DNA of 64,000 nucleotides from an uncultured Bacillota bacterium (GCA_902493275.1 CABUOQ010000001.1:28639-92638), one strand, 5' to 3'; counted from the stretch's first letter, positions 4,152-30,560 are shown. Notes: generated by a model from the sequence alone, not told the origin. Numbers and translations: made by a program.

Positions 4152-4523
4152 ATGAAAAAATATTTACTTAACTTTAGTATGTCCTTTTTTTGCAGTTTAA
4201 TCGTCGGAATTATTGTCTGTCTAGTTTTAGCAATTTTAAAAAGCAATAATTCTTTAGATGATAATGCTTCAAATATTTGTTTAACCGTGTTAACAATTTT
4301 GCTCTTTTTTATCTTTGGATTTATCTTTTCTTTTGCCCAGAAAAAAAGAGGCATTATCAATGGTCTCTTTCTATCGGCAATATATTTAATTATTTATTTT
4401 ATTTTAAATGCACTTAACATATATCAATCGCCTTTATATATAACTATATCTCGAATAGCCTCAATCATGTTAGGTTCACTATTTGGAGTTAATTTAGCTT
4501 CTAAAGGTGATCGAACAAATTAA
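4152..4523 (+). CDS. Small polytopic membrane protein (hypothetical)
   Basis: 124 aa from the ATG at 4152 (AGGTGA SD upstream), with 3-4 hydrophobic helices. It is more plausible than the overlapping minus-strand ORF at 4139-4360. Confidence 0.35.
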
Positions 4524-10994: not shown

Positions 10995-13580
10995 TTATAA
11001 AATTTGTGATTTTTTATTTTTATATTCGTTTAATTGATTCTCATAATTTAAAAGCTTTTGTTTTTCCAAATTGATTTTCTGTTCTGGTGCTTTAGCGATA
11101 AATGCTGGATTATCTAACATCTTCTTACAACGAGCAACTTCTTTTTCTAATGCAGTAATTTTTTCATCTAACTTCTTAATTATTTCTTCTTTTGAAACAT
11201 TTTCTTCAATGAACATTTGCCCAATTGAATATAATGTAGATAGTGATTTTTTGTTTTCATCATCGATAATAATCTCTTCGGCGAATCCAAATCGTTTCAA
11301 ATAAGGAATAACTATATTAAAATCAAAATCACCATGATGATTTAAAAATAGACGAACTTTAGCATTAGGAGCTAAATTATTATCAACTTTGAAATTTCTG
11401 ATGTCCTTAATCATCTTGATAAGACCATCAACTTTTCTTTCATTTTCATCATCGAGATACTTATCTTCAATTTGCGGATAAGAATCAAGCATAATCGATT
11501 CTAAATGACCTGGTAAATTTAAATATATCTCTTCGGCGATAAATGGTGTATATGGATAAATCATTAAAATGATTGCTCTTAAAACCTTAAGCAAAACTTT
11601 CTTACTATTTAACGCATGTTCACCATTAAATTTTATCTTTGAAAATTCAACATACCATGAGGTGAAATCATCGTAAACAAAATCATATAAATGCGTTGAT
11701 GCATTAGCAAAATCATACTTTTCCATATTATCAGTAACATTGATAATTGTTTTTTGTAAACGGCTTAAGATATAGTGATCAAATATATCAAGTTCATCAT
11801 CATTTATTGGAAGTGATAAATCATCATTTTCAATATTCAATAAAATGAAACGCGATGCATTCCAAATTTTATTTAAATATGCTTCAGATGATTTAATTTT
11901 TTCTTCAGAATAACGTGTATCAAGTCCTGGCGAAGTAGAGGTGGTTAAAAAATATCTAAGTGCATCCACGCCATATTGATTAATCACGTCGATTGGATCG
12001 ATACCATTACCTAATGATTTTGACATCTTACGACCCTGACTATCACGTATTAAACCATGAATCAAGCATTTTTTAAATGGTGCTTGCTTGGTGAACTCTA
12101 ATCCTTGGAAAATCATTCTTGAAACCCAAAAGAAAATAATATCATATGCCGTAACCATCACATCGATAGGATAATAACGTTTTAATAATGCGCTGTCATC
12201 TGGCCATCCTAAGGTAGAAAAAGGCCAAAGTGCAGAAGAAAACCAAGTATCAAGAACATCTTCATCTTGAAGATAATTTTCCATATTTTCAGGCTCATTT
12301 TCACTTACAAGAACTTCACCAGTTTTTTTATTATAATATGCTGGAATACGATGTCCCCACCATAATTGACGAGATATACACCAGTCTTCACATCCTTCCA
12401 TCCAGGAAGTAAATATTTTATTGAAACGTTCAGGAATGAATGTGACTTTCTCTTCACTATCTTGATTTTTTAGCGATTGTTCCGCTAGAGGTTTCATCTT
12501 GACAAACCATTGTTTTTTTAACATTGGTTCGACTACCGCTCCACTTCTTTCGGAGTGTCCAACTTGGTGAACAATATCATCGATTTTAATTAAATTTCCT
12601 TCTTTTTTAATTTGTTCAACTAATTTATCCCGACATTCATAACGGTCTAGTCCCGCGTATTCTTTTCCACAACAATCAGCCATTGTCGCATCATCGTTGA
12701 TGACGATTGGATGAGGGAATTTATATTTTTGTCCAATAGTGAAATCATTTGGATCATGAGCTGGAGTACACTTCATAACTCCCGTTCCAAATTCAATATC
12801 GACATAATCATCTTCAATGATTGGAATTAATTCGTGATTAGCTGGGTTAATTACCTTTTTACCAACGACATTTTTATATCTTTCATCTTTAGAATTAACA
12901 ACAACGCATACATCGCCAAACATAGTTTCAGGACGCGTGGTTGCCACTGTTAAATATTTATCAGAATTCTCAATATAATATTTAAAATAATAGAACTTTC
13001 CTGGATCATCTTTGTGAATTACTTCGATATTACTCAATGCGGTTTTAAAAACCGGATCCCAATTTATGATTCTTTCACCACGATAAATAAGTCCTTTATT
13101 ATATAAAGTCACAAATACATGCTTAACTGCTTTAGATAATCCTTCATCTAAAGTAAATCTTTCTTTAGAATAATCAAGCGATAAACCCATCATCGCCCAT
13201 TGACTATGAATAGTGTCCGCGTATTCATGTTTCCAATTCCAAGCTTGTTCTAAAAATTTTTCTCGACCCAAATCATAACGAGATATTCCTTGACTTCTAA
13301 GACGCTGCTCAACTTTGGCTTGAGTAGCTATTCCAGCGTGATCCATACCTGGAATCCATAAAACATCGTATCCTTGCGCTTTTTTATAACGGGCAATTAT
13401 ATCTTGAATCGTCGTATTCCATGCATGTCCTAAATGAAGCATACCAGTAACATTAGGAGGTGGAATAACCATAGAAAATTTAGTTTTGGTTAAATCTCCA
13501 CTGAGAAAGTAACCTTTATCTTTCCAAGTTTGATACTTGCCATTTTCAACTTGTTGATGATCATAATGAGTGTCTAACAT
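10995..13580 (-). CDS. valS: Valine--tRNA ligase
   Basis: HIGH-type motif PPPNVTGMLHLGHA, KMSKS motif, C-terminal coiled coil; 861 aa. Confidence 0.97.
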   Translation of the reverse strand: MLDTHYDHQQVENGKYQTWKDKGYFLSGDLTKTKFSMVIPPPNVTGMLHLGHAWNTTIQDIIARYKKAQGYDVLWIPGMDHAGIATQAKVEQRLRSQGISRYDLGREKFLEQAWNWKHEYADTIHSQWAMMGLSLDYSKERFTLDEGLSKAVKHVFVTLYNKGLIYRGERIINWDPVFKTALSNIEVIHKDDPGKFYYFKYYIENSDKYLTVATTRPETMFGDVCVVVNSKDERYKNVVGKKVINPANHELIPIIEDDYVDIEFGTGVMKCTPAHDPNDFTIGQKYKFPHPIVINDDATMADCCGKEYAGLDRYECRDKLVEQIKKEGNLIKIDDIVHQVGHSERSGAVVEPMLKKQWFVKMKPLAEQSLKNQDSEEKVTFIPERFNKIFTSWMEGCEDWCISRQLWWGHRIPAYYNKKTGEVLVSENEPENMENYLQDEDVLDTWFSSALWPFSTLGWPDDSALLKRYYPIDVMVTAYDIIFFWVSRMIFQGLEFTKQAPFKKCLIHGLIRDSQGRKMSKSLGNGIDPIDVINQYGVDALRYFLTTSTSPGLDTRYSEEKIKSSEAYLNKIWNASRFILLNIENDDLSLPINDDELDIFDHYILSRLQKTIINVTDNMEKYDFANASTHLYDFVYDDFTSWYVEFSKIKFNGEHALNSKKVLLKVLRAIILMIYPYTPFIAEEIYLNLPGHLESIMLDSYPQIEDKYLDDENERKVDGLIKMIKDIRNFKVDNNLAPNAKVRLFLNHHGDFDFNIVIPYLKRFGFAEEIIIDDENKKSLSTLYSIGQMFIEENVSKEEIIKKLDEKITALEKEVARCKKMLDNPAFIAKAPEQKINLEKQKLLNYENQLNEYKNKKSQIL

Positions 13581-13870
13581 ATATTTCCCTCCTAAAAATA
13601 AAAAAACATCCAGTTAAGGACGTTAAACGCGGTACCACCTTAATTCGATTACAAAAAAATAATCGCACTTAATTGAACTTTAACGCAGTTAACGAAGATT
13701 CCTCTTATCTCAACAGCGACTATAATTAATTTCTTTAACTTCTTTTCACCAACCAGAAGCTCTCTTTTAAATTCCTTAATTAACCTCTGTCTCATCGACT
13801 AGAAATATATTAACTAATTTAAAAAGTTAAAGCAAGTTAATATTTCTAATTTCCTTATTAATGTTTTTGC
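13581..13870 (-). promoter_or_regulatory. T-box riboswitch leader of valS
   Basis: Conserved T-box sequence: the minus-strand RNA reads AAGGUGGUACCGCG (plus coordinates 13626-13639). Immediately downstream is a terminator hairpin ACGUCC..GGAUGU plus U7AU5. It is followed by an AGGAGG SD and the valS ATG. Confidence 0.7.
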
Positions 13871-15798: not shown

Positions 15799-16371
15799 TT
15801 AGAATAAATGTGTTTGCAATTTATCTTGCAATGATTTAATCGTCGAAGGAACATTGATTGATGTAAATAAATAATCATCGATATGATATTTTCGACACAT
15901 ATTTAATAGCTTTGCTTTTTCCGATTGCTTTAATTTATCGCATTTAGTAAAGATAAGTGTATATTTATATCCAAGTTGTTCAAGATAATCTATTGTCTTC
16001 ATTTCTTCATCGGTAATATCGCGTCTAGAATCAAGTAGATAAACAATTAATTTCAATTGATGATTATCACTTAAATAGTCATTCATCATATTCTCAAAAT
16101 TGTCCTTTTCATATGCGAGACGGCGATAGCCAAATCCTGGAGCGTCAACTAAATAGAACTTATGATCAATTAAATAATAATTAACTAATTTTGTTTGACC
16201 AGGTTTTTTTGAAACATACGCTAGATTCTTCTTTTCAACTAGAGCGTTAATCAAAGATGATTTACCAACATTTGACTTCCCCATAAATAACACTTGAGGA
16301 AAATCATAAAGATGATCGCCTTTATTAAAAGCTGATTTTATAAATTCGGAGACTTTATAATTAATTTTCAT
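15799..16371 (-). CDS. engB: Ribosome biogenesis GTPase EngB/YsxC
   Basis: G1 GKSNVGKSSLINAL and DAPGFG motifs; 190 aa. Overlaps the lon stop. Confidence 0.9.
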   Translation of the reverse strand: MKINYKVSEFIKSAFNKGDHLYDFPQVLFMGKSNVGKSSLINALVEKKNLAYVSKKPGQTKLVNYYLIDHKFYLVDAPGFGYRRLAYEKDNFENMMNDYLSDNHQLKLIVYLLDSRRDITDEEMKTIDYLEQLGYKYTLIFTKCDKLKQSEKAKLLNMCRKYHIDDYLFTSINVPSTIKSLQDKLQTHLF

Positions 16372-18709
16372 AATCGACTATTGCTTCTTTTAAAGCGTCC
16401 TCGACATTATCAAGTAAGACAAATTCAATATTATCTCTAACCACTTGAGGAAGATCATTTAAATTTCTTTCGTTATCGCGCGGAATTAAGATCTTTTTTA
16501 TTCCTGAGCGGTATGCAGCGAGCGATTTCTCTTTAAGTCCACCGATGGCAAGAGCATTTCCTCGCAAAGTAACTTCACCAGTCATAGCCACAGTAGAATA
16601 AATAGCACGATGGCTTAAGCATGAAACAATTGCTACGCTTATTGCAATACCCGCGGAAGGTCCATCTTTTGGAACTGCACCTTCTGGAACATGAATATGA
16701 ATATCACTCTTTGAGAATAATTCTGGATCAATTTTGAATTTTTTAGCGTTAGCTTTAACATAATCTATAGCAATTGTAGCCGATTCTTTCATAACATTTC
16801 CAAGATTACCTGTTAGAACTAATCCTCCTTTACCTTCGAAATAATTAACTTCGATTGGCAAGATATCACCACCGAATTGAGTATAAGCTAAGCCCGTGAC
16901 CACTCCAATTTGATTCTTTTTTTCACGTTTAGAAATATCATAATATTCAGTTCCTAAATATTCTTTAACTTTTGTTGGGGTAATCTTAACTTTACGATTA
17001 CTTCCTTTTTTTAATTGTTCCACAAGAGATTTACGAACAATAGTGCCAATTTTACGCTCTAATTCTCTAACACCAGCTTCCAAGGTATAACGATTCATAA
17101 CATAGTAAACAGCATCTTCACTAAATTCGATCTTCTTTACATCCATGCCATTTTGAGCACATTGCTTTGGGATTAAATGCTCAACAGCGATATGATATTT
17201 TTCTTCATTAGTATAAGTACTTAATTCAATTAATTCGAGACGATCTCTTAATGCCGCGGGAATATTCTCTAAATAATTAGCTGTGGCAATAAATAAGACA
17301 CGCGATAAATCATATGGTTCTTCAAGATAATTATCTTGGAAAAAGGAATTTTGTTCAGGATCTAAGACTTCTAATAAGGCTGAAGCTGGATCACCATGAT
17401 TGTTTGAGGTCACTTTATCGATTTCATCGAGTAAAAACACTGGATTAACCACTCCAGCAGTTTTCATGCCTTTAATAATTTTTCCTGGCATAGAAGCTAC
17501 ATAAGTTCTTCGATGTCCTCTTATTTCGGCTTCATCAGAAGTTCCACCAAGCGAAGCTTTTACAAACTTACGATTTAAAGCGCGCGCGATTGATTTGGCA
17601 AGTGATGTTTTACCAGTTCCTGGTGGTCCATAAAGACATAAAATAGGAGCTTTTAGCGATTTAGTGACATTTTTAACTGCTAAATACTCTAAAATTCTTT
17701 CTTTAACTTTAACTAAACCAAAATGATCTTCATTTAAAATTTGTTCAGCATGATTGATATCATCATTATCTTTTGATTCTTCAAACCATGGAATAGACAT
17801 CATTGTATCAATGTAGCTACGAGCCATTGATGATTCAACTGAAGCTGCAGGCAATTGCTTATAATGAGTGATTTCACTTTTTATTTTTTTCTTAACATTT
17901 TCCGGATAAGGATTTTTTTCAAGCATCTCTAAATATCGATCGACACTATCACCATCATCCGATGACATATCATCTAATTCTTCTTGAATTGCTTTCATCT
18001 TTTCGCGTAGAATATATTCTCTTTGAGTTTGTTCCGATTTATTTTTTATCGTTTCAAAAAGATTCTTTTCAATTTTATCATCTAACTGATTATGATTTAA
18101 TTTTGCAAATAAAATGTTTAAACGATCTAAGAGATTTGAATTTTCAAATAAGCTTTGGCGCTCTTCAAAAGGCATCTCTAGATAATTCGTTAATATATTC
18201 GATAATTCTTCTGGCGAAACACCTTTTTCAATCTTATAAACTACCGGTCTAGGTAATTGAACAGGTGGTTCACTATTAAAAATTACTTCATTTATTTTTT
18301 TTACGATTTTTTCTATTTCAACATCAGATGAATCATAAATTAATGGATATAGATCGTAAGTACAATCAAAACAAGGATGACCTTCATAAAGAGAAGTTTT
18401 TATTTCCTTTATCAAGACTCTTTTTATCGCGGTAACACGAATGCGATATATACCATTAATTTCTTTAATAGTATCAATATTACAAAGAGAACCAATTGTT
18501 AAAATTTGTTCAACAGTTGGTTCGTTGATTGAAATATCAGATTGCGAGGTAATAATTATTTTTGATTCGAATAAATCTTTTGATTTATTCATCGCTGAAA
18601 CAGAAAAAACTCTTCCAACATCAATGTTTGCCACAGTGTTTGGAAAAACTATAGCTCCACGAGTTATAAGTAATGGACAACTCAAGGATTGTAATTCATT
18701 TTCTGGCAT
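16361..18709 (-). CDS. lon: ATP-dependent Lon protease
   Basis: LON N-terminal domain, AAA+ Walker A GPPGTGKTS, proteolytic PKDGPSAG Ser-Lys dyad; 782 aa. Confidence 0.97.
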   Translation of the reverse strand: MPENELQSLSCPLLITRGAIVFPNTVANIDVGRVFSVSAMNKSKDLFESKIIITSQSDISINEPTVEQILTIGSLCNIDTIKEINGIYRIRVTAIKRVLIKEIKTSLYEGHPCFDCTYDLYPLIYDSSDVEIEKIVKKINEVIFNSEPPVQLPRPVVYKIEKGVSPEELSNILTNYLEMPFEERQSLFENSNLLDRLNILFAKLNHNQLDDKIEKNLFETIKNKSEQTQREYILREKMKAIQEELDDMSSDDGDSVDRYLEMLEKNPYPENVKKKIKSEITHYKQLPAASVESSMARSYIDTMMSIPWFEESKDNDDINHAEQILNEDHFGLVKVKERILEYLAVKNVTKSLKAPILCLYGPPGTGKTSLAKSIARALNRKFVKASLGGTSDEAEIRGHRRTYVASMPGKIIKGMKTAGVVNPVFLLDEIDKVTSNNHGDPASALLEVLDPEQNSFFQDNYLEEPYDLSRVLFIATANYLENIPAALRDRLELIELSTYTNEEKYHIAVEHLIPKQCAQNGMDVKKIEFSEDAVYYVMNRYTLEAGVRELERKIGTIVRKSLVEQLKKGSNRKVKITPTKVKEYLGTEYYDISKREKKNQIGVVTGLAYTQFGGDILPIEVNYFEGKGGLVLTGNLGNVMKESATIAIDYVKANAKKFKIDPELFSKSDIHIHVPEGAVPKDGPSAGIAISVAIVSCLSHRAIYSTVAMTGEVTLRGNALAIGGLKEKSLAAYRSGIKKILIPRDNERNLNDLPQVVRDNIEFVLLDNVEDALKEAIVDYEN

Positions 18710-18751: not shown

Positions 18752-20023
18752 CTACTCGTTATTAGCAAGAATAAACTTTGAAAATAATTCGTTTTTCAAA
18801 TTATTTAATACTTCATTTTTATTTGGTTCAAGAGCAGTTCTAACATCTTCAATTTTCATATTATATAATTTAGCTAATTCTTCAACTTTATCGTTATATG
18901 CTTTTGAATCAACAACAATTTTTTCTTTTTGGCAGATTTCTTGGATGACTAACATTCCTTTAAGGTTCTTTAATGCCTCAACCTTCTTATCTTCAAATAA
19001 CTTTTCAATAGTGATGTTATTTATTTTTAGATAATCTTCAAATTTTAAACCATTCTTTTCAACTTGGTCTTTAATAGATTTAATTTGAGCATTTGCTTCT
19101 TCGGCTACGATAACATCAGAAATATCTAAAGTTGAACTTTCAATAATCTTATCAACAATAGCGTTCAAATGATTATTATCAGCTGCTCTTTGTTTTTGAG
19201 ATAAAAGATCTTTTTTAACTTTTTCACGATATGAATCAACACTTTCAACATTATCAAGTTTTAAATCTTTGACAAATTCATCATTTAATTCAGGTAATAC
19301 AGTCTTTTTAACTTCGTGACATAAGACCTCGAACTTAGCATCTTTGCCAGCGAGTGATTCAACATAATTATCAGGGAATTTAACTTCGATAGTACGTGAT
19401 TCATCACTTTTAATTCCTACCAATTTGTCTTCAAATCCTGGGATGAAAGAGTTAGAACCAAGTTTTAAATCATATGATTTTGCCTCTCCACCTTCAAATG
19501 GAACATCATCGATAAATCCCTTGAAATCAATAGTTACTGTATCGCCAATTTCTGCTGCATCATCTTTTAAAACTAATGTAGCTTCTTTTTCTAATTCTTT
19601 GGTTAAAGCTCCATTAACCTCTTCTTCAGTTACATTTACTTCTTCTTTTTCAACTTTAATACCCTTATATTCACCTAAAGTAACAACAGGTCTTAAAACA
19701 ACAGTAATCTCTACTTCAAATTCATTTTCATCAGCTTTATTAACCATTAATTGTGGATCGGTAATGCCTTGAATTTTTTCTTCATTAACAATTTTGACAT
19801 ATTCCTTGTTAACCATATCATATAAAGCATCATGAATTAATTGGTTTTTATTAATTCTTTGTTGAGCTATATTAGCAGGAACATGACCTTTTCTAAATCC
19901 AGGCACATTTAATTTCGCTGCGAGTTTGTTAAATTCCTTTTTTTGTGCTGAAGCCCATTCTTCACCATTAGCCGATAAAGTTATGACGACTTCTGATACT
20001 TTTTTTTCAATCTTCTTTTCCAT
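18752..20023 (-). CDS. tig: Trigger factor
   Basis: N-terminal ribosome-binding motif GFRKGHVP and a central FKBP-type PPIase; 423 aa. Confidence 0.93.
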   Translation of the reverse strand: MEKKIEKKVSEVVITLSANGEEWASAQKKEFNKLAAKLNVPGFRKGHVPANIAQQRINKNQLIHDALYDMVNKEYVKIVNEEKIQGITDPQLMVNKADENEFEVEITVVLRPVVTLGEYKGIKVEKEEVNVTEEEVNGALTKELEKEATLVLKDDAAEIGDTVTIDFKGFIDDVPFEGGEAKSYDLKLGSNSFIPGFEDKLVGIKSDESRTIEVKFPDNYVESLAGKDAKFEVLCHEVKKTVLPELNDEFVKDLKLDNVESVDSYREKVKKDLLSQKQRAADNNHLNAIVDKIIESSTLDISDVIVAEEANAQIKSIKDQVEKNGLKFEDYLKINNITIEKLFEDKKVEALKNLKGMLVIQEICQKEKIVVDSKAYNDKVEELAKLYNMKIEDVRTALEPNKNEVLNNLKNELFSKFILANNE

Positions 20024-20130
20024 AATAAAAATATTCTCCTTACTAAAAGCAAGTACTATTTTATATTATAAATATAAATAGAGCAAGAAAATATTTTTAT
20101 CATTTGCTTTTTTATATTAAATATTTGACC

Positions 20131-20215
20131 TTAAAGATTATCTTTAATGATTTTAATCATAAGAATGATATCTTCTTCATCTAACACTCTTTTATTAAAC
20201 ATTCTTTATAATTAA
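20131..20215 (-). pseudogene. Orphan 3' fragment (..MFNKRVLDEEDIILMIKIIKDNL*) homologous to the C-terminus of the 293-aa protein at 27219-28100
   Basis: About 70% nt identity to 27219-27300. Encoded tail ..LMIKIIKDNL* compared with ..NTMIKIIKEHL*. Confidence 0.6.
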
Positions 20216-20261
20216 AAAAATCCATGAAAGCAAAATCATTAATTTTTTTATCACCAATCAA

Positions 20262-20314
20262 AAAAAGGATAGAATCACCAATCATCTTTTAAAAGATATG
20301 ATTCTTCCTTTTAT
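20262..20314 (-). terminator. Bidirectional rho-independent terminator downstream of lipoprotein paralog A
   Basis: aaaaggatagaatca..tgattcttcctttt stem with T-runs on both strands. Confidence 0.6.
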
Positions 20315-20409
20315 AAAATTTCTCAATTTGAATTTTGAAAATTCTTATTTAGACTATAAATAAATGTTAACACTATTGCTATTTTGTCTAGAGCAAGTTT
20401 ATTAGTCAA

Positions 20410-21132
20410 TTATAAACCAGCTTTAGAAAAAGTAATGCTTTTATTTTCATCTACCATAAAGCCAATATATGGATTATGATAACTTTCTATAACATCATCA
20501 TTATAAACTGGAACTATCTCTTCCCCAGATTTACGATATATTCTAAGTGATTCTTTTTCAACAGGCGCTATAGTGAATGTATATTGTATACTACCTTTAC
20601 TTTTAATCAAATCATCTGCAGTAACGATATCATTGAATGGCAATTTTTTATGATATTGTATCGCAAATTCAATATCAAAAAAATACTCAGTTTTATTTTC
20701 AAAAGAATATATCTCTTTAACATCATAAACATCTTTATATCCATCGATGTAAATATTTCTATATAATTTTAATTCTAACAATTGATCCTTATCTGAATTC
20801 CACCATTCAAGAAATTCATGATTTAAATATCTTTGACCAAAATATACCTCAACACTTTGATTATGACTACTTTCTGTTCTAGCTTTTATTCCTGTATAAA
20901 ATTCATAAAAACTATCTATTAAAGGTGAAGTAGAACCACTATCCTTATCAAAATTTAATCCGGCTTCAATATATTCATCTTGCGAATTCATTTCTGATGA
21001 TAAGCTACTCACTACTTCTGTGTTTGATGATATGCTGCTTTTTTTATTAGCATTATCGCACGAGGTTAATAGTGAAGAAAATAAGAATAAACAACTTACA
21101 ATAATTAATGCATTAGATTTCTTTGTCATCAT
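20410..21132 (-). CDS. Surface lipoprotein, paralog A (240 aa)
   Basis: Lipobox LLTSC. The N-terminal roughly 50 aa and C-terminal roughly 110 aa are near-identical to the 22523-23230 product, with a divergent central segment. Confidence 0.75.
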   Translation of the reverse strand: MMTKKSNALIIVSCLFLFSSLLTSCDNANKKSSISSNTEVVSSLSSEMNSQDEYIEAGLNFDKDSGSTSPLIDSFYEFYTGIKARTESSHNQSVEVYFGQRYLNHEFLEWWNSDKDQLLELKLYRNIYIDGYKDVYDVKEIYSFENKTEYFFDIEFAIQYHKKLPFNDIVTADDLIKSKGSIQYTFTIAPVEKESLRIYRKSGEEIVPVYNDDVIESYHNPYIGFMVDENKSITFSKAGL

Positions 21133-21192
21133 AATATTCCTCCCTAATATTTTATATTATTTTTTTAAAAGTCATAGTTATTCATCTTACCT

Positions 21193-22190
21193 ACCTTAGA
21201 ATTGAATTTTTTTATATCCTTCTTAATTACCCAAGTCTTTTGAATGTTCTCAAAATATCAAGAAAATTACTTGAGTCGACAAATCATTAAGGAAATAATC
21301 TCAACCATTCACTTAATGACAATGGTTATTTCTTTATGAAATTGAGCCATTTACTTGTTAAGTTGTTTATCTTTCTATGCTCTCTATGGTGTAATTGTCA
21401 ATCAAATTATTTAGAAATCATCAAATCTAATTTAAATATTTAAATAACTTAAGAGCAAACAAAAAAATATTAATATTATCTCTAAGTTATAAGTACCCTA
21501 AACATATTTTATACTTTTCACTATTGTTTGTAAATACCGATATTTAGAGATTTCTTTTGTAGTTTGAACATTTGATAAGGTAAGAAAATAATAATATTAA
21601 ACAATAAAACTTTTTACTATGTTATTGCTTCTTTTAGAAATGTTAATAAAGTTTCTAGCAAGTGTTTTTTCAATATTGGTGAACATTTAAAATTATTAGC
21701 TTGCTGTATTGATGATTATATAACAAATAAAGGAGAATCAGCAACTAACAAGTCTCATCGATTGATAAAAATGCGATAGAAGAAGAATCTAAATTTAATT
21801 GTTTTTATGCTGTTGCTCCAAATCGTGAAATAACTATCTATGAAATAGTAAAAATCAATTCTTCTAGATGGAAATAGAACAATCTTTTATAATATTAAAA
21901 ACTGATTTTGATGCAGACCTGCTTATAAAATATCCGTGGTCATTTTGCAATTTACTTTATTAATATATCATATTCTTGAAAGAAAATTATTTTTATTAAA
22001 TGAAAACATTTATTTTACTACAAATCAAATTCTTCAACTTTAAGCAACAAACTTGATAGAAAATATTATAATTTTTCTTCTCTTAACAAACTCTTCTCTT
22101 AATTATTAAATCGTAGCAATATTCTCATTTACATTTCTTATATTACAACATATTGCTACTTTTTTGTTCTTTATCTGAAAAAGCCAAGAT
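21193..22190 (+). mobile_element. Decayed IS remnant copy 1 (IS4/IS5-type DDE transposase C-terminus, frameshifted)
   Basis: Around 21836-21960 the sequence reads ..YEIVKINSSRW(K)IEQSFIILKTDFDADLLIKYPWSF.. with the R-x3-E-x6-K transposase signature broken by a 1-nt deletion in an A-run. There is no intact ORF. About 1 kb is repeated at 26130-27210. Confidence 0.5.
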
Positions 22191-22256
22191 ATTATAAATA
22201 TAAATAGAGCAAGAAAATATTTTTATCATTTGCTTTTTTATATTAAATATTTGACC

Positions 22257-22336
22257 TTAAAGATTATCTTTAATGATTTTAATCATAAGAATGATATCTT
22301 CTTCATCTAACACTCTTTTATTAAACATTCTTTATA
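22257..22336 (-). pseudogene. Orphan 3' fragment of a 293-aa-gene homolog (second copy)
   Basis: Identical in coding sequence to 20131-20215. Confidence 0.6.
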
Positions 22337-22384
22337 ATTAAAAAAATCCATGAAAGCAAAATCATTAATTTTTTTATCACCAAT

Positions 22385-22440
22385 CAAAAAAAGGATAGAA
22401 TCACCAATTATTCATTAAAGGATATGATTCTTCCTTTTAT
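22385..22440 (-). terminator. Bidirectional terminator downstream of lipoprotein paralog B
   Basis: Same hairpin as 20262-20314. Confidence 0.55.
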
Positions 22441-22522
22441 AAATTTTCTCAATTTGAATTTTGAAAATTTTTATTTAAACTATAAATAAATGTTAACACT
22501 ATTTTTTATTTCATATTATTTT

Positions 22523-23230
22523 TTAATAGGTAATTTTAGAAAAAGTAATGTATTTATTTTCATCAACATTAAAATTTATACTAGAACCATAACTTCGGAT
22601 TTCATTGTCAGAGTATGCTAGAACAATTCCATTACTAGACTTGCAGTAAATTCTAAGCGGCTCATTTTCAACCGGTGAAATAGTAAATGTATATTTCACA
22701 CTACCTCTACTTTTAATTAAATCATCTGCAGTAACGATATCATTGAATGGTAATTTTTTATGATATTGTATCGCAAATTCAATATCAAAAAAATACTCAG
22801 TTTTATTTTCAAAAGAATATATCTCTTTAACATCATAAACATCTTTATATCCGTCGATATATATGTTTCTGTACAATTTAAATTCTAATTGTTGATCTCT
22901 ATCAGACCCCCAATAATCTAATAACTCGGCACTCATAAGATAATTTCCAAAATATACTTCGATATTAGGATTTAAACTGCTCTCTTTTTTCACTTTTATT
23001 CCCGTATCCCAATAATTGAAAACGGTATCTACAGGACTCTCGGTGGTACCCCTATCGAATCCCACTTCAATATATTCATCTTGCGAACTAATCTCTGATG
23101 ATAAGCTACTCACTACTTCTGTGTTTGATGATATGCTGCTTTTTTCATTAGCATAATCACACGAGGTTAATAGTGAAGAAAATAAGAATAAACAACTTAC
23201 AATAATTAATGCATTAGATTTCTTTGTCAT
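22523..23230 (-). CDS. Surface lipoprotein, paralog B (235 aa)
   Basis: Lipobox LLTSC; shares N- and C-terminal blocks with paralog A. Starts 28 nt after the stop of the 906-aa gene, so is likely co-transcribed with it. Confidence 0.75.
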   Translation of the reverse strand: MTKKSNALIIVSCLFLFSSLLTSCDYANEKSSISSNTEVVSSLSSEISSQDEYIEVGFDRGTTESPVDTVFNYWDTGIKVKKESSLNPNIEVYFGNYLMSAELLDYWGSDRDQQLEFKLYRNIYIDGYKDVYDVKEIYSFENKTEYFFDIEFAIQYHKKLPFNDIVTADDLIKSRGSVKYTFTISPVENEPLRIYCKSSNGIVLAYSDNEIRSYGSSINFNVDENKYITFSKITY

Positions 23231-23257
23231 AATAATATTTCTCCCTATTATATTATA

Positions 23258-25978
23258 TCAACTTTTTGTAAAAGTTATATTTATATCGTCACCTGAATCA
23301 TAATCGGCAAAAGTTTCAGAAGGATCATATTGAGAAAGGACAATAAAATAAGTAATGTCTTTATTAAAGTTTCCATAAATCTCTGCATTAGAATCATCAG
23401 AATCATCATTTTCATTAATATCATATTCAATTAAATCTGAACTACTTGGATTAATAACATAGAGATAATTGTCAAACTCACTATTTAATTTAATTTTATA
23501 GTAACCACTTTCAGTTGGAGTCCATGTTAAAACCATAGAATTGTACTGACATAAATATGCTTTTAAAGAATAATTTGTAACTGAATTAATATGATAAATA
23601 TTTTCATATTTTGATAATGAATTATCTTCATTATTTTTAAACCCTTTTATAGGGGTTATAGATAGTTTCGTCTTTCCGGAAGCAGTTGAACTATATAATT
23701 TTATTTTCAAGACATAAGTTTTATTGGATTCTAAATTTTTATTAATAAATGAATTTAATTTATATCCTGAATCATCATCGTTAGCAATTAAAGTTTTTCC
23801 ATCCTCTTCATACAACCACATTTTGGTATCTATTCCACCAAACGTTTGTATTAATTTATCACCAGAATTATCAAAACTAATGTGGAAGATCCATTCTGTT
23901 CCCTGTGAAATAGCTAAGCTTTTTTCAAAATATCTTATATTATCTAATTCTAAATTGGTTTCTGCCATAGAAGGCTTAGAAAATTCATAGTAACTAGAAT
24001 AATATGGACCACTCTCTATACCAAGAGTAGCATATGATTGAATCATAACATAATACTTTGTACCTGTTGCCATAAGTATAGAGTCCCATTCACTTTGAGT
24101 TAAAGTATATGTGTTAGTAGTTATGTTATTCTTCTTTAATATCAAATTTTTGTTTAAATCATAAAAGTTTAATGTGAATTTATTATTGCAAAAACTATAT
24201 TTTACTCCATCTACAATAATACTTGTCCCTCCAACTTTCCAATTAAATGTTGGTAGTACAAAATAATTATCAGAAACATTAATTGAAATATTGTATGAGC
24301 TCAGTTTGAATCCTTCTAGCAATTTTCCTAAGTCAGAACGTGAAAAACTTAACTCACTATTATATAAAACATTAATAAAATCGTAAAAAAATTCTGGGTT
24401 GTTATCAACCATTAAGTTCCACAAATCCGTATCACTAATTGATAATTTATCACAATCTATAGAATTGTTTGAATCCCAAAGTCTATAAAGAAAACTTTCA
24501 ATAATAACTTCATCTGATTCGCCATTTATTTGATTATGAAATCCAAATGTATTAGTCATTTCCTCTAAACTTTGATCTATTCCATTATAAGAACTATATT
24601 TTACGTCTCCGACAACAGATATTTTTCTTAAGTCTTGTGGAAAAGTGCTTTGAGCAGTAATAGCAAAAAATGTAGGCCATGCCTCCTTCCAAGCAAGACC
24701 AATCGCATGAGTTTTTGCTTTCGCTAATTCTTGAGCGTCGATAATATATTCTTCACTATTCTGTTTTGCACTAATAATATTACTGAATAAATATTGGTAT
24801 AAACCATTATAAACTATAGCATGCTCACCAGAATAATTTTGTTGAAAAAAACATTTCTGTAAATGGTGGCCATATTCATGACCTATAACATCCCACGAAC
24901 CATGAACGGATGGAGAGTCATTTTTTCTATAAGACTCATTGGCCAAATAAATATTTTGCTCATTATTTAAATAATAACATCCATCATTTTCTGTAGGATA
25001 TACAATACCACATGTTTCTATGTAAACTCCATTGTTTAATGTTCTTGCATACTCAGAATATCTTTCCATTGCAGAAAAAATTTGCATTGCATATCCCAAA
25101 TCATCATGTTGCGCTCCAGTAAATGTTAGAGTGCCAAAGTCATAATTTGTATTAATTGAAAAATTTGTAAGTTTATTAGCACTTTCATACACATTTCCAT
25201 TTTTATTTATTACTTTTACCATTAAATTTTCAGCATAAATATGTATATAGCAATCACTACTTGCTAACAAACTACTATAATTAATATTAAAATATCCAGA
25301 AGAATTAGTATAAGTAAAATATGCAAATTGATTATGACCTAAATCTAATTTAACTTTTACCCCAATTAAAGGGTGAGAATTTAACTCATCATCCTCCCAT
25401 TTTAAATATCCATAAACTCTTCCAGAGAAACTAATTTTTTGAGGCTTATTAGTATCCATATCTTCAGACTCTGGCGTTACTCCTATATACGATGCATTAT
25501 CTACATCGTTATCCATATACTTTTGACCTGGAATATTTCCTACTAATTCCCAAGCTGAATAAAGCGACAATGAAGATATGGCATATTTATTGTCTTCACT
25601 TTTTGAAGAATAAACACTTCTTTTAATTGTCTCTTCTTCCAAAGAAAATGATATTTCTGTTTTTCCATCTTCATTAGGTAAAGTAAATTTTACATAACAT
25701 CCACTTATATCTGATGATATGATATCTAAACTTATATTACCTTCAAAATGTATTAAAGGAACAGCTTCAAAATCATAATTAATATTGCCAAAAAATGTGT
25801 TGTTATTTGAAACAGCATTCTCACCAAAATCAAATGTAATTGTATGATTGTTTCCCGTTCCTAAACTATAATTAACATTTTTAATTTCAGTTAAATTTAC
25901 TAAATTTTCATTGCTTACTGACGGATGAAAAGAAATACCCAAAAAAACCAACATTAATATTAAGAACTTTTTTAACAT
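23258..25978 (-). CDS. Large secreted protein (906 aa) with an HExxH zincin-like motif and a C-terminal pre-peptidase (PPC)-like domain; putative metallopeptidase
   Basis: SPI-type signal peptide MLKKFLILMLVFLGISFHPSVS. Motif ..SWDVIGHEYGHHLQ... A C-terminal roughly 110 aa region ..LYEEDGKTLIANDDDSGYKLNSF..YVLKIKLYS.. resembles PPC domains. Asn/Ser/Tyr-rich beta composition. Confidence 0.55.
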   Translation of the reverse strand: MLKKFLILMLVFLGISFHPSVSNENLVNLTEIKNVNYSLGTGNNHTITFDFGENAVSNNNTFFGNINYDFEAVPLIHFEGNISLDIISSDISGCYVKFTLPNEDGKTEISFSLEEETIKRSVYSSKSEDNKYAISSLSLYSAWELVGNIPGQKYMDNDVDNASYIGVTPESEDMDTNKPQKISFSGRVYGYLKWEDDELNSHPLIGVKVKLDLGHNQFAYFTYTNSSGYFNINYSSLLASSDCYIHIYAENLMVKVINKNGNVYESANKLTNFSINTNYDFGTLTFTGAQHDDLGYAMQIFSAMERYSEYARTLNNGVYIETCGIVYPTENDGCYYLNNEQNIYLANESYRKNDSPSVHGSWDVIGHEYGHHLQKCFFQQNYSGEHAIVYNGLYQYLFSNIISAKQNSEEYIIDAQELAKAKTHAIGLAWKEAWPTFFAITAQSTFPQDLRKISVVGDVKYSSYNGIDQSLEEMTNTFGFHNQINGESDEVIIESFLYRLWDSNNSIDCDKLSISDTDLWNLMVDNNPEFFYDFINVLYNSELSFSRSDLGKLLEGFKLSSYNISINVSDNYFVLPTFNWKVGGTSIIVDGVKYSFCNNKFTLNFYDLNKNLILKKNNITTNTYTLTQSEWDSILMATGTKYYVMIQSYATLGIESGPYYSSYYEFSKPSMAETNLELDNIRYFEKSLAISQGTEWIFHISFDNSGDKLIQTFGGIDTKMWLYEEDGKTLIANDDDSGYKLNSFINKNLESNKTYVLKIKLYSSTASGKTKLSITPIKGFKNNEDNSLSKYENIYHINSVTNYSLKAYLCQYNSMVLTWTPTESGYYKIKLNSEFDNYLYVINPSSSDLIEYDINENDDSDDSNAEIYGNFNKDITYFIVLSQYDPSETFADYDSGDDINITFTKS

Positions 25979-26129
25979 ATTTTTACATCTTATACTAATA
26001 AATAATTTGAGATTGAACTATTTATTAGTAATCCTTTCTTTGAGAACAATACTTTTAATTAATTCAATAATCAAAAATAAATTTATGTACATATATGTCA
26101 AGTACAAAAAAATTATTCTTTATGGACAA

Positions 26130-27210
26130 AGCTAATTAACCCACCTTAGAATTGAATATTTTATGCATTCTTTTTAATTACCCAAGTCTCTTGAATGTTC
26201 TCAAAATATCAAGAAAATAACTTAGGTTGACAAATCATTAAGAAAATAATCTCAACCTTTCACTTAATGACAATGGTTATTTCTCTATGAAATTGAACCA
26301 TTTATTTGTTAAGTTGTTTATCTTTTCTATACTCTCTTTGTCGTACAAAATATGCTAAATATAATGCTTTGCTAGCGATTGAATATAAGACTTATATTTT
26401 TTAGATTCATTTATAAGTTTAAACTCTTTTTACTAAAGTTCTTGAATTAAAATTAAGTCGTATTCTTCACATTTTATTTATGCGACAAAAATCTTATATT
26501 TAGATATATAATACCTAAAAACAAAATTTTTAGTTGTGATATTTTTGCTTTTTCATAAACAAAAGATATTATTAATCAAATCACTTAGAAATTATCAAGT
26601 TTAATTTCAATGTTTAAATAATAGCCTAAGAGCAAAACAAAAAAATATCAATATTATCCCTAAGTTATAAGTACCCTAAACATATTTTATACTTTTCACT
26701 ATTGTTTGTAAATACCGATATTTAGAGATTTCTTTTGTAGTTTGAACATTTGATAAGGTAAGAAAATAATAATATTAAACAATAAAACTTTTTACTATGT
26801 TATTGCTTCTTTTAGAAATGTTAATAAAGTTTCTAGCAAGTGTTTTTTCAATATTGGTGAACATTTAAAATTATTAGCTTGCTGTATTGATGATTATATA
26901 ACAAATAAAGGAGAATTAGCAAATTAAAAACTGATTTTGATGCTAGATCTGCTTATAAAATATCCGTGGTCATTTTGCAATTTGCTTTATTAATATATCG
27001 TATTCTTGAAAGAAAATTATTTTTATTAAATGAAAATATCCATTTTACTACAAATCAAATCCTTCAACTTTAAGCAAAAAGCGTAATAGAAAATATTATA
27101 ATTTTTCTTCTCTTAATTATTAAATCGTAGCAATATTCTCATTTGCATTTATTATATTGCAACATGTTGCCACTTTTTTATTCTTTATCTGCAAAAGCCA
27201 AGATTATAAA
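26130..27210 (+). mobile_element. Decayed IS remnant copy 2
   Basis: Collinear with 21193-22190 at about 90-95% identity. It has an extra roughly 190-bp segment at 26345-26590 and lacks the roughly 150-bp segment at 21720-21880. Its transposase-tail reading frame is broken differently. Confidence 0.5.
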
Positions 27211-27218
27211 ACTTGTCA

Positions 27219-28100
27219 TTATAGATGTTCTTTGATGATTTTAATCATCGTATTTACATCATCTTCGTCTAACGCTGTATTAATTAATAATTGTTTAAGC
27301 GATTGTTTCTCATCAAATTCCAGTTGCGTAAGATAAAAAACAATCTCTCCGATTATCTCTGAGGAATAAAAATCAAATAAGGAATGTGGAAAAAATTTAA
27401 TTTCAACCGTATTTAAAATATCAATTGCTAAGGAAATAATAGATGGAGAAACACTTGCTCGTTGAATGTAATCAACACAATCTAAATATGCTTTTCTATC
27501 TAATGGATATGCTAGCTTAATCGGATTAATTACAAGTGTCTCTTTATCAGATATTTTCACCTTAAAATTTGAATCTATCTTTTGATCGATTAAAATATAT
27601 TCTAACAAAACTTTATAATCATATTTTTCATTTGAAATAAGATATTCGGAAACAACATCTAAATAGTTGCGAATATTAATTGATGAAAGGTATTTTAAAG
27701 CTTGACTAACACAATCAACATTCTGACTATATAAATCTTTTATAAGTGATTCACGAGTGTAGTCATCTTTTTTTATTGAAAAATAATTCTTTTTGATTTC
27801 TTCTTCTAACTCGTTCATAAAATCATCAACTGTTAATGAAATAAATGGAGCCTCTTGATATTCTTTCAATACTTCTAAAGCTTGGTTTGCATCATCTTTA
27901 GCAAGATAAAAACTCACATGTTTGCCAATCAATAATACCGGTTGTACTTTTAATAAATGTTCAGCATTATTATCGATAAAATCATGTAATTTATCTTCAT
28001 CAAGCATCATTATAATCACATCTAAAAGCTCAAATAGTGAGGAATCATCTTTTTTTAAGAGTAAATCTTTATATTTTTTTAATAGAACTTCATTATCCAT
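27219..28100 (-). CDS. Acidic cytoplasmic hypothetical protein (293 aa). Full-length member of the family whose 3' fragments appear at 20131 and 22257.
   Basis: Complete ORF with no signal peptide; its 3' end abuts the IS remnant end. Confidence 0.55.
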   Translation of the reverse strand: MDNEVLLKKYKDLLLKKDDSSLFELLDVIIMMLDEDKLHDFIDNNAEHLLKVQPVLLIGKHVSFYLAKDDANQALEVLKEYQEAPFISLTVDDFMNELEEEIKKNYFSIKKDDYTRESLIKDLYSQNVDCVSQALKYLSSINIRNYLDVVSEYLISNEKYDYKVLLEYILIDQKIDSNFKVKISDKETLVINPIKLAYPLDRKAYLDCVDYIQRASVSPSIISLAIDILNTVEIKFFPHSLFDFYSSEIIGEIVFYLTQLEFDEKQSLKQLLINTALDEDDVNTMIKIIKEHL

Positions 28101-28103
28101 TGA

Positions 28104-29072
28104 TTAATATATTTCCTTTACTTTTGCAATAAAAAAACTCAAAGTTTTCTCATGATAATATTCTCGTGCTGTCTTTTTGTCATCAGTAACATAAATTTGA
28201 TTTATATAAGGGCAATCTTTATAATATGAAGAAATAACTTTCATTGATAAAACATCACCAAATTCTGAATATTCTCTTTCAAAGCCATCATTATATATTA
28301 TACGGGCATCGCTTAAAGTACCATTAATGTATCTTTGCAATGTTGGGACTACGCCGCCTCTATAACCAAGTGTTGGATTACCTTCAACTGATAGACCATA
28401 TTTATTAGTAAATTGACTATAATATTCATCACTAGTAAAATATTTTGACATATCAAAACCATACAATACTTTTTCATTATTCTCAATGTAGTCATTAAAA
28501 AATAATTTCTTAAAGGAAGTACAATCACTACACGTTTCTAAATGGAAATAAACATCTATATCACCATTTGATGAAATTAATTTATTTAATTCATCCTCAT
28601 CATTTAACACATAAAAATTAGAAACGTTAATCTTAGAATTAATTAAATTATTAAACGCTATCGAAGAATTAAATATCTCACTATTTTTTTCATCATCAAA
28701 GCGCTCCTTAATATTACCATTTTCATAAAGAATAAGTGTTGGAGTTACTTTATATGGTGAAAAAGAATTATCAGGAGATAATCGCTCAGCATCAACGTTT
28801 ATGCCATATATTAAGCAGTGATTCTGTTTAATATATGAATTCAAAATATTTTCAAATGAATTACAGGAAAAACAACTGGGAGAATAAATAAATAACAAAA
28901 AAGTGTCTTCATTCATTATCTTCCCTTGCAATATATCTTTTGAAATATCAGCAAAGCTCTCATTAAATGCTGATCCTTGTATTGTAATCATATCTTTATT
29001 AGGCATGATACTTCCTTGTTTACATCCAGTTAAGCACATCAAAACCAAAAATGGAATAATCTTTTTTTTCAT
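28104..29072 (-). CDS. Lipoprotein with two thioredoxin-like CxxC domains (thiol-disulfide oxidoreductase-like)
   Basis: Lipobox LTGC; ..LFIYSPSCFSCNSF.. and ..DVYFHLETCSDCTSF.. CxxC motifs in a beta-strand-CxxC-helix context; 322 aa. Confidence 0.55.
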   Translation of the reverse strand: MKKKIIPFLVLMCLTGCKQGSIMPNKDMITIQGSAFNESFADISKDILQGKIMNEDTFLLFIYSPSCFSCNSFENILNSYIKQNHCLIYGINVDAERLSPDNSFSPYKVTPTLILYENGNIKERFDDEKNSEIFNSSIAFNNLINSKINVSNFYVLNDEDELNKLISSNGDIDVYFHLETCSDCTSFKKLFFNDYIENNEKVLYGFDMSKYFTSDEYYSQFTNKYGLSVEGNPTLGYRGGVVPTLQRYINGTLSDARIIYNDGFEREYSEFGDVLSMKVISSYYKDCPYINQIYVTDDKKTAREYYHEKTLSFFIAKVKEIY

Positions 29073-30307
29073 TAGAATTTTACCATTCCATATTTCTTTT
29101 TACCACGTCTAATTACGATATATTTTTCACCTATAGCCATTTGACTTGTTAAAATGACATTGCTGTCCGTAATTTTTTCACCATTAACACTAATAGCGCC
29201 ACCTACAATAAATTCACGACCCTCACGCTTAGAAGAAGCAAGTTTTAATCTTATAATAGCATCAAGCAATGTTTCATTTTCCAAAGCAGAAATGCAAGGT
29301 AAATCATTAAAGCCCATCTCAATTTCTTCTGCAGTTAGTTCTTTAATATTGCCATCAAATAAGGCTTGTGAAATTCTTAAAGCTTGTGCATATGCTTTTT
29401 CACCATGAACGAAAGTAGTTATCTCTTTAGCTAATGTTTTTTGAGCAAGTCTTTTTTCTGGCTCATTTAAGAAATCTTTTTCGATTTGATATATATCTTC
29501 TAATGGCAAAAAAGTAAATTGCTTTAAGCGCTTAATTACTTCATTATCTGGTGTATTTATCCAGAATTGATAAAATTCGTATGGTGAAGTTTTCTCTTTG
29601 TCTAACCAAACTGATTTTCCACCTTCTGATTTACCAAATTTAGTGCCATCAGATTTAAGTATTAATGGAATAGTCATTCCATACACTTTAGCCTCAGGAC
29701 CATTCTTTTTACGGATTAATTCAATTCCAGCGGTAATATTTCCCCATTGATCTTGACCACCAATTTGAACGTTGCAATTTTCAAATTGATATAAATGATT
29801 CCAGTCTAAAGATTGTAAAATCTGATATGAAAATTCAGTATATGAAATTCCAGATTCTAGTCTTGATTTAACTGTATCTTTATTAATCATATAATTAACA
29901 TTAAATTCTTTACCATAGTCACGTAAGAAATCGATTACACTAATTTTTGAAATCCAATCATAATTATTTACAATTTTCTCAAAGCCAAAAATTTCTTTGA
30001 CTTGTTTAGCTAAACATTCAGAGTTTTTCAAAGTAACACTTGGGTCGAGCATTTTTCTTTCACCTTGCATTTTTGGATCGCCGATTAAACCGGTTGCTCC
30101 TCCAACTAACAAGATTGGGTGATGACCATGATCTTTTAATCTTTTAGCCACTAAATATGTTACTAAATGACCAACATGAAGAGAATCACCTGTAGGATCA
30201 CATCCAAGATAAAATGTCACTTTATTATTTTCTAAAAAATCTCCAAAACCTTCATCTGTGGTATCAAAGAATAAATCTCTTTGCTTTAATTCATCAATCA
30301 ATCTCAT
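29072..30307 (-). CDS. tyrS: Tyrosine--tRNA ligase
   Basis: HIGH-type motif ..DPTGDSLHVGHL.., KMSKS-type KFGKS, C-terminal S4 domain; 411 aa. Confidence 0.97.
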   Translation of the reverse strand: MRLIDELKQRDLFFDTTDEGFGDFLENNKVTFYLGCDPTGDSLHVGHLVTYLVAKRLKDHGHHPILLVGGATGLIGDPKMQGERKMLDPSVTLKNSECLAKQVKEIFGFEKIVNNYDWISKISVIDFLRDYGKEFNVNYMINKDTVKSRLESGISYTEFSYQILQSLDWNHLYQFENCNVQIGGQDQWGNITAGIELIRKKNGPEAKVYGMTIPLILKSDGTKFGKSEGGKSVWLDKEKTSPYEFYQFWINTPDNEVIKRLKQFTFLPLEDIYQIEKDFLNEPEKRLAQKTLAKEITTFVHGEKAYAQALRISQALFDGNIKELTAEEIEMGFNDLPCISALENETLLDAIIRLKLASSKREGREFIVGGAISVNGEKITDSNVILTSQMAIGEKYIVIRRGKKKYGMVKF

Positions 30308-30560
30308 ATTATTCCTCCTAAAAAATAAAAAGCGCCTTAGAAATTTCTAAGGACGCATCTAAGATACGCGGTACCACCTTAGTTCTAGCAATGCTAGCCC
30401 TCTTTAATTAAGTTTCTCCAAAGTGTATTTCATTAACTGATCAACAATGATTTTCACCATCCATCATCTCTCTAAATTCTTAATCAGATAACTACTTATC
30501 TTTTTCATAGAAACAATCTTTCGATTAATCTTATTTTAAAAGGAATTTTATCCTTAATCA
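30308..30560 (-). promoter_or_regulatory. T-box riboswitch leader of tyrS
   Basis: Minus-strand RNA carries AAGGUGGUACCGCG (plus 30365-30378). A terminator hairpin GCGUCCUUAG..CUAAGGCGC plus a U-run follows, then the SD and ATG. Confidence 0.7.

Follow-up and report, generated by a model that had tools for sequence, protein, structure and literature searches.

How did two copies of the same dead insertion sequence (IS) come to lie, in the same orientation, on either side of a set of surface-protein genes, and what have they done to that locus since? The question is raised by a 64,000-nt stretch of DNA from an uncultured Bacillota bacterium (GCA_902493275.1, CABUOQ010000001.1:28639-92638), referred to below as the window. 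Between its tig and tyrS genes it carries two degenerate copies of an IS, each joined to a piece of flanking DNA; we call such a two-part copy E (E1 on the left, E2 on the right), its non-IS flank X and its IS remnant delta-IS. The history that we consider likely is that one IS inserted once, decayed, and was copied only later, as a dead element, in a local segmental duplication, E1 and E2 having recombined with each other since.

The order of the locus is tig / Ua (20063-21181) / X1 + delta-IS1 / Ub (22189-23284) / 906-aa gene / X2 + delta-IS2 / 293-aa gene, Ua and Ub being the two copies of a 1.1-kb direct repeat, U, which contains a lipoprotein gene. The parts of E1 and E2 are as follows (strand after the coordinates):

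21189-21548, plus: X1 (360 bp), left part of copy 1, lacking the 230 bp of X2; 90.5-95% identical to X2
21549-22188, plus: delta-IS1 (640 bp), IS1634-family remnant, about 30% of the full element; from tblastn, and from blastn to the IS of contig L083 (74-84%)
21549-21586: left inverted repeat region of delta-IS1, outer tip lost
21600-21716 (copy 2: 26781-26894): N-terminal relic, transposase aa ~9-52
21719-~22100: C-terminal relic, transposase aa ~467-615, including the broken RWKIEQSF motif
22169-22188: right inverted repeat of delta-IS1, CTTGGCTTTTTCAGATAAAG
26139-26726, plus: X2 (588 bp), left part of copy 2, including the private 230 bp 26338-26567
26727-27202, plus: delta-IS2 (476 bp), IS1634-family remnant, without 149 bp and 16 nt that are kept in delta-IS1
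26727-26763 and 27183-27202: left inverted repeat region and right inverted repeat of delta-IS2

Two collinear copies in the same orientation

Copy 1 (21189-22198) and copy 2 (26139-27210) were aligned by BLASTN as three collinear blocks: A (21189-21385 versus 26139-26337; 90.5% identity, E 3e-73), B (21394-21744 versus 26568-26922; 95.2%, E 9e-163) and C (21894-22198 versus 26923-27210; 87.9%, E 1e-97). A repeat search of the window agreed with BLASTN on both copies, and no third copy of E was found in the 64 kb. The sequence-only reading of the window, which had described repeats of about 1 kb around some 3.9 kb of DNA, is borne out on this point: the copies are real and the interval between them measures 3950 bp (22189-26138). 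It had also noted private indels of about 150 bp in copy 1 and about 190 bp in copy 2. The former corresponds to 149 bp at 21745-21893; the latter exists as well, but its size is 230 bp (26338-26567). A further 16 nt retained in copy 1 are missing from copy 2.

Short-read contigs end at these repeats (L001, L095, L096, L098) and several alleles can share a sample (ERZ27256565 gave both L097 and L102), which would favour an artefact of assembly, i.e. one repeat whose copies had been merged or multiplied, or a chimera of several strains. The two copies, however, diverge by 5-12% and carry private indels, and independent public assemblies cover every junction of the window arrangement at 99.6-100% identity: L095 covers tig, lipoprotein gene a, copy 1 and then 78 nt past copy 1; L098 and L001 cover lipoprotein gene b, the 906-aa gene and the left part of copy 2; L088 and L092 cover copy 2 and the 293-aa gene. 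Only about 80 nt, inside a perfect repeat (22267-22349), are without a unique spanning contig, and the linkage implied across them is the sole one compatible with the other contigs. An artefact is therefore extremely improbable, and the collapsed repeat that had been named as a risk at the outset is not what these assemblies contain.

A relic of the IS1634 family

When the surviving coding pieces were stitched by hand into one translation, the relic matched the NCBIfam model NF033559 (IS1634 family transposase) over model positions 330-445 with 38 bits (E 9.5e-10); the cutoff of 100 is not reached, some three quarters of the protein having been lost. Pfam alone gave a sub-threshold match to DDE_Tnp_1. 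The unstitched DNA, compared by tblastn with full-length relatives, gave E values of 1e-7 to 1e-11 for both its N- and C-terminal pieces; these relatives score 301-304 bits against NF033559 (same cutoff), and their plasmid homologues carry the annotation IS1634 family transposase. The proposed transposase origin is thus upheld and, at the level of homology, descent from the IS1634 family is established.

A scan of one genome per species yielded 364 loci, the best of them in metagenome-assembled genomes (MAGs) of uncultured Bacilli, Candidatus Alectryobacillus and Candidatus Enteromonas. The elements of the relatives are 2058-2138 bp long, with transposases of 613-632 aa. The closest at the DNA level was the IS of L083 (about 2138 bp, scaffold position 3613-5750), 84% identical over 21600-21701 and 74% over 21713-22047 (blastn). 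Because even this closest relative is only 74-84% identical in nucleotides, the parent IS is an undescribed species of the IS1634 family, from gut Bacilli. A search of 5.8 billion proteins returned four fragmentary relatives at 37-52% identity, and neither a 23-mer from X nor a 26-mer from the N-terminal coding part had a match in metagenome contig scans. The best protein match to the relic, P0001, is a 291-aa chimeric open reading frame (ORF) on a 941-nt contig, in which the C-terminal third of an IS1634-family transposase follows directly on a 3'-5' exonuclease domain (PF01612); one may presume that here, too, a truncated copy of an IS has become fused to an adjacent gene.

Measured against L083, the IS-derived part of the copies represents 22-30% of a full element. 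Both copies keep codons ~9-52, codons ~467-577, the last ~15 codons and the right end. Both have lost the same 1243 bp, in which the catalytic core lies (L083 3912-5154; residues ~53-466 of the relatives), and also the start codon with some 146 bp of leader, and about 93 bp near the C-terminus; codons ~467-577 hold several small frameshifting deletions. The motif RW(K)IEQSFIILK, at 21866-21905 in copy 1, had been described as broken by a single-base deletion, and the comparison with L083 agrees: one A is lost from an A-run at about 21872, L083 reading AGATGGAAAATAGAGC where the window has AGATGG-AAATAGAAC (in short form, AGATGGAAAATAG versus AGATGG-AAATAG). Neither copy contains an ORF of 40 aa or more; as had been stated, the relic is frameshifted and the window is without an intact transposase.

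The right end of the element is clear. On the minus strand the right inverted repeat reads CTTGGCTTTTGCAGATAAAG; in the window it is present only at 22169-22188 and 27183-27202 (0 expected by chance), it scores 21-23 on a position-weight matrix made from the ends of 12 relatives, and it resembles the repeats of the relatives, e.g. CTTGACTTTTGCAGTTAG in L083 (see also CGGRAGTTTTRCAGTT / CTTGACTTTTGCAGTT). For the left end, the 45-mer of the L083 left repeat had its best matches in the window, both strands considered, at 21549 and 26727 (29/45 identities; next best 26), the outer 5-6 nt being without match. These two positions, just upstream of the N-terminal codons, are internal to the copies, at whose outer edge the same matrix found no left inverted repeat (nor did it find one at 26541-26560). 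An alignment of the leader regions with MAFFT gave no usable signal, and a target duplication around delta-IS2, for which either 5-6 AT-rich bp or a long repeat of variable length would be expected in this family, was not readable, the left junction being rearranged. Just left of Ua, the minus strand has CTTGCTTTTAG (~20045-20059) upstream of the ribosome-binding site of tig, a string like the initial 11 nt of the right inverted repeat (CTTGGCTTTTGCAG); we judge the likeness to be due to chance, although an older IS end might have left it as its final vestige.

It follows from the position of the left repeat region that, contrary to what had been assumed, the copies are not wholly IS: their left 360 bp (copy 1) and 588 bp (copy 2) lie outside it and have no IS homology. 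In tblastn with the full-length relatives, X showed no similarity to a transposase. Compared with the ORFs of the window (tblastn) and with loci L001-L082 (blastn, tblastx), it matched only itself and contigs of the same organism; it had no match in Rfam, none among phages, and among plasmids only one 34-nt AT-rich chance match. X was also considered as a decayed copy of the 293 3' region, left by an old, long target duplication; no similarity was found, and this reading was rejected. X is best read as ordinary flanking DNA that was copied along with the dead IS, the outer boundary being the same in both copies.

Probably one dead element, copied after its decay

The genes and fragments which adjoin E1 and E2 are needed to follow how the copies arose:

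20063-21181: Ua, left copy of the 1.1-kb direct repeat, made of a 68-nt spacer, a 293-family 3' fragment, lipoprotein gene a and a 906 relic
20131-20133, minus: stop codon of the orphan 293-family fragment in Ua
20410-21132, minus: lipoprotein gene a (240 aa; lipobox LLTSC)
21155-21181: 906-aa ORF relic in Ua (terminal ~24 nt)
22189-23284: Ub, right copy of the 1.1-kb direct repeat, made of the spacer, the orphan fragment, lipoprotein gene b and the true 906 3' end
22257-22259: stop codon of the orphan 293-family fragment in Ub
22523-23230, minus: lipoprotein gene b (235 aa; lipobox LLTSC)
23258-25978, minus: gene for a 906-aa secreted protein, with a signal-peptide-like N-terminus and no Pfam family
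27219-28100, minus: 293-aa gene, right neighbour of delta-IS2; paralogue of the orphan fragment and of the L102 295-aa gene

Because the 1243-, ~146- and ~93-bp deletions, the frameshifts, the truncated left end and X are common to both copies, E1 and E2 would derive from one element which was already dead. The sequence-only reading had favoured a preferred insertion site instead, and two independent insertions downstream of 293-family genes, each followed by decay, would account for the fact that the copies lie in the same orientation 16 or 68 nt past the stop codon of a 293-family gene or fragment. Independent insertions cannot, however, share these lesions and more than 360 bp of non-IS flank, and the IS copies are 88-95% identical versus 74% for the adjoining 293-family 3' ends. 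The shared lesions refute such a scheme, which could be rescued only if gene conversion had homogenised every one of them, and we give it practically no credence.

The orphan 3' end of a 293-family gene, on which the insertion-site proposal leaned, is real but short: its last 17-22 codons (ending in LDEEDIILMIKIIKDNL and the stop codon) align clearly with the 293-aa gene (65% aa identity, 74% nt identity over 80 nt), and about 70 codons perhaps remain in decayed form. Contig L102 carries an intact 295-aa paralogue (73-960), 42% identical to the 293-aa protein, directly next to tig, on its upstream side. Since its stop codon is at nearly the same distance from tig as that of the orphan, the orphan in U is best taken as a relic of this tig-proximal paralogue. 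The 295-aa gene is itself preceded by the end of another short ORF, which suggests an ancient duplication of a gene pair. No member of the 293 family could be assigned to a Pfam or NCBIfam family. That both copies of E adjoin a 293-family 3' end then has a simpler explanation, without target preference: the new junction would have formed in the spacer downstream of the tig-proximal paralogue.

The junctions of U give the direction of the events. Ub begins at the first base past the right inverted repeat of delta-IS1, and Ua ends 7 nt before E1. Since the terminal ~24 nt of the 906 ORF survive in Ua and the IS end is where Ub starts, the contiguity of U with the 906-aa gene should be ancestral and the Ua/X1 junction derived. 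Because the 1.1-kb repeats flank copy 1 exactly, cassette and element were probably duplicated together; the earlier proposal, in which the element copies explained how the cassette was copied, is thus not supported, these copies having been passengers and not drivers. And because X, outside the left repeat, has the same boundary in both copies and the lesions are shared, the copying would have been by recombination or replication and not by transposition.

The scenario which we put together from these junctions is as follows. A single insertion of an IS of about 2.1 kb would have taken place 16 nt past the stop codon of the 293-aa gene, where delta-IS2 would still mark the original site. The element would then have lost the tip of its left repeat, ~146 bp of leader, 1243 bp of core, ~93 bp and its reading frame. 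Only after this decay would X and delta-IS have been copied about 5 kb leftward, in a local segmental rearrangement which also duplicated the lipoprotein unit U. By a first route, [U-906-X-delta-IS] would have been duplicated in tandem, the junction falling in the short homology that follows both 293-family 3' ends, after which the first of the two 906 copies would have been lost; by a second route, a single template-switching event during replication would have produced the same gene order. Either would yield U / E1 / U / 906 / E2 / 293. The flank past the right repeat of copy 2, ATTATAAA, is similar to the left edge of U, ATATTATAAA (the chance of an 8-mer identity at two random positions is 1.5e-4).

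The U/E1/U arrangement also looks like an insert between direct repeats, with Ub starting at the first base past the right repeat. X and delta-IS could accordingly have been moved in trans, by the transposase of a related IS1634-family element acting on a cryptic left end at 21189/26139, the 1.1-kb U copies being the target-site duplication. The family does make long and variable direct repeats (8-514 bp; PMC2266710), those of the closest relatives measure 26 bp (L006) and about 397 bp (L083), a single event would suffice, and the empty site would be represented by allele P (L099; tig / U / 906). The repeats bracket X plus delta-IS, however, and not delta-IS alone; the outer edge of X has no inverted repeat (score below -7, against 21-23 for the true right repeats); and the real left repeat is internal, with its tip lost. 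Moreover, the longest duplication reported is half of 1.1 kb, the window has no intact source of transposase, the search of 5.8 billion proteins brought up no close one, and the likeness of the donor flank ATTATAAA to the target edge ATATTATAAA fits recombination better. Mobilisation in trans is therefore very unlikely. If true, it would roughly double the 514-bp record for such duplications, and would mean that the unexplained long-duplication mechanism of the family could copy a whole gene.

Recombination between the copies in other strains

Among near-identical strains (98-100%) represented in public gut metagenomes, the tig-tyrS interval was found in at least five alleles:

W (L095, L098, L001, L092, L096, L088, L093): arrangement as in the window
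S1 (L087/L100, L089, L094, L103; four samples): tig / U / one E / 293
S2 (MAG GCA_964314975.1, L101 + L091): resembles S1; the lipoprotein gene is a-type and E holds an additional IS of another kind
P (L099): tig / Ub / 906
F (L102): tig adjoined by an intact 295-aa paralogue
L090 variant (L090): departs from the window at 26326

The single E of S1 is a chimera. Every informative site left of 21485 is of the copy-1 type and every one right of 21738 of the copy-2 type, and the chimera lacks both the 230-bp and the 149-bp segments. The crossover falls within 21485-21738, a stretch of about 250 identical bp in block B, and 5178 bp are deleted, i.e. the rest of E1, lipoprotein gene b, the 906-aa gene and the start of E2; the 906-aa gene is indeed absent from L087, L089, L094 and L103. 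S2 carries the same kind of chimeric E. The recombinant predicted from the window being found in other strains, E1 and E2 are shown to act as substrates for homologous recombination in nature, and the suggestion that the repeats could serve for deletion is thereby sustained.

The polarity could in principle be the reverse, with the short single-E allele as the ancestor, from which a duplication together with the entry of the 906-aa gene led to the window arrangement: the short allele is present in at least four samples and has the simplest structure. But it is without the 149 bp of copy 1, which are true transposase sequence (homologous to L083 5155-5340) and could not have been re-created; S1 is for this reason not ancestral. 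The clean switch of its informative sites from copy-1-type to copy-2-type, and the relic of the 906 3' end in Ua, point the same way, and we regard the reversed order as highly improbable. Allele P would be either the state before the duplication or the product of a deletion between Ua and Ub.

The lipoprotein gene of S1 is a mosaic, with a-type flanks (in L087, an a-type 5' end) around a b-type body, which indicates gene conversion or allelic replacement between the paralogues. In the window, lipoprotein genes a and b are themselves mosaics (ends 93-100% identical, body 84%, a central patch almost identical), an observation suggestive of the same processes.

In the S2 genome, a different, apparently intact IS lies inside the remnant at window-equivalent position 21547-21560. 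It was read from the last 140 nt of L101 (reverse-complemented) and the first 141 nt of L091; it has 45-bp inverted repeats starting CGTGAATTCTTAAACTAAAATCCG, an ORF beginning MSHLTDDDRKKISN and a 14-bp target duplication (GATATTTCTTTTGT). Its N-terminus looks IS30-like. The point where L091 diverges from the window (~26725) had been considered as the tip of the IS1634-family element, with 'CGGA'; it was discarded, L101 and L091 being the two sides of the different inserted IS.

Several points weigh against the history of a single insertion, decay and copying of a dead element. The origin of the duplication by segmental rearrangement is inferred from junction anatomy only, and the intermediate allele [U 906 E U 906 E] was not found among public contigs. 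Since a random breakpoint would rarely fall exactly at an IS terminus, as the new right junction does, the IS end may have taken part in its formation. The left inverted repeat was called on a 29/45 identity to one relative, with the outer 5-6 nt unmatched, and X might conceivably have an IS-related origin. As for the recombination of E1 with E2, its dependence on RecA is an assumption, one or two events may lie at the origin of all short alleles, and the b-type lipoprotein body of S1 requires, from the window arrangement, an extra step of gene conversion or allelic replacement. With these points taken into account, we still hold the copying of a dead element to be the probable course of events.

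The net effect is a gain or loss, from strain to strain, of genes for secreted proteins and lipoproteins between the housekeeping genes tig and tyrS. The process is common and involves no new mechanism; the locus provides a small documented example of a dead IS and its flank reshaping, by recombination, a surface-protein locus long after the element lost its mobility. The circulation of at least five alleles bears on strain typing, on the assembly of MAGs (contigs break here) and on how gains and losses of secreted proteins and lipoproteins are read. The study also adds to the IS1634 family an undescribed lineage from gut Bacilli, with long direct repeats (26 and ~397 bp).

Setting of the locus

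Contigs identical or nearly identical to the window come from human-gut metagenomes, and its G+C content is about 30%; the host is therefore taken to be an uncultured low-GC Firmicute. The genetic code is standard, because one large ORF terminates at TGA. The neighbouring features include two T-box leaders:

10995-13580: class I tRNA synthetase gene
13613-13804, minus: T-box leader upstream of this gene
16361-18709, minus: lon, housekeeping neighbour
18752-20023, minus: tig, housekeeping neighbour
28104-29072, minus: PedC-like thioredoxin-fold gene, housekeeping neighbour
29072-30517, minus: tyrS with its T-box, housekeeping neighbour (tyrS itself, 29072-30307)
30346-30517, minus: T-box leader upstream of tyrS

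A scan for promoters and terminators remained at chance level (68 sites versus 68 expected). The 906-aa protein had only weak NCBIfam matches, to the region of an AbsR1 beta-glucuronidase (E 5e-7) and to a zinc-peptidase model (E 0.003). Its gene seems dispensable, because the strains of L088 and L093 carry it with a premature stop at codon 369 (4 substitutions, 0 indels).

Comparison with known systems

The IS1634 family, with IS1634 of Mycoplasma mycoides and IS1549 of Mycobacterium smegmatis, was described by De Palmenaer et al. (2008; PMC2266710) as an 'emerging family' related to IS4, with a quoted length of 1.5-2.0 kb and direct repeats of 8-514 bp. The relic shares with it the transposase homology (NF033559) and a remnant of the YREK region, R-x3-E-x6-K, from which the Y is missing; its full-length relatives have large transposases (613-632 aa) and terminal repeats beginning with C. 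Their direct repeats, long and variable, fit the duplications of IS1634 and IS1549: 26 bp in L006 (4665-4690 and 6829-6854) and about 397 bp in L083 (3216-3612 and 5751-5805, only the first 50 bp of the right copy being on the contig). The window remnant differs from a member of the family in its extent, which is 22-30% of an element. With residues ~53-466 both catalytic D regions have been lost, so that there is no intact DDE core, and the remaining E/K region is frameshifted. The start codon and the tip of the left repeat are missing: the right terminal repeat is clear, whereas the left region is only 29/45 identical to that of L083, with the outer 5-6 nt unmatched. At 640 and 476 bp, the two remnants are well short of the quoted length, which the relatives, at about 2.14 kb, slightly exceed (range 2058-2138 bp).

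The nearest elements are the L083 IS and its relatives L003-L009, from MAGs of uncultured Bacilli, Candidatus Alectryobacillus and Candidatus Enteromonas. They are collinear with the relic over the left repeat region and the right repeat, over the N-terminal 40 codons and over some 150 codons at the C-terminus, and have the repeat core TTTTGCAG in common with it. They differ in being full length or nearly so and in their genomic contexts, L083 being split by frameshifts and runs of N.

At a larger scale, M. mycoides PG1 offers a likeness (PMC1798306): it has repeats of 24, 13, 12 and 8 kb flanked by IS elements, and there too same-orientation IS copies bracket a strain-variable segment. In the window, the IS copies are dead, the segment is about 4 kb, and the copies would have been made by rearrangement, not transposition. 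Miniature inverted-repeat transposable elements (MITEs) come to mind because delta-IS is a short derivative of an IS, with an internal deletion and terminal regions. MITEs would have intact termini, a target duplication of their own and unrelated sites; here one repeat, the left, is truncated, no target duplication is readable around delta-IS itself, and the two copies in 64 kb share more than 360 bp of non-IS flank. Nor does the segment resemble a composite transposon: neither copy has an ORF of 40 aa or more, and the outer left end is non-IS DNA without inverted repeat. What the locus does resemble is a pair of direct repeats undergoing homologous recombination, for which the predicted recombinant exists in the chimeric E of S1 and of S2.

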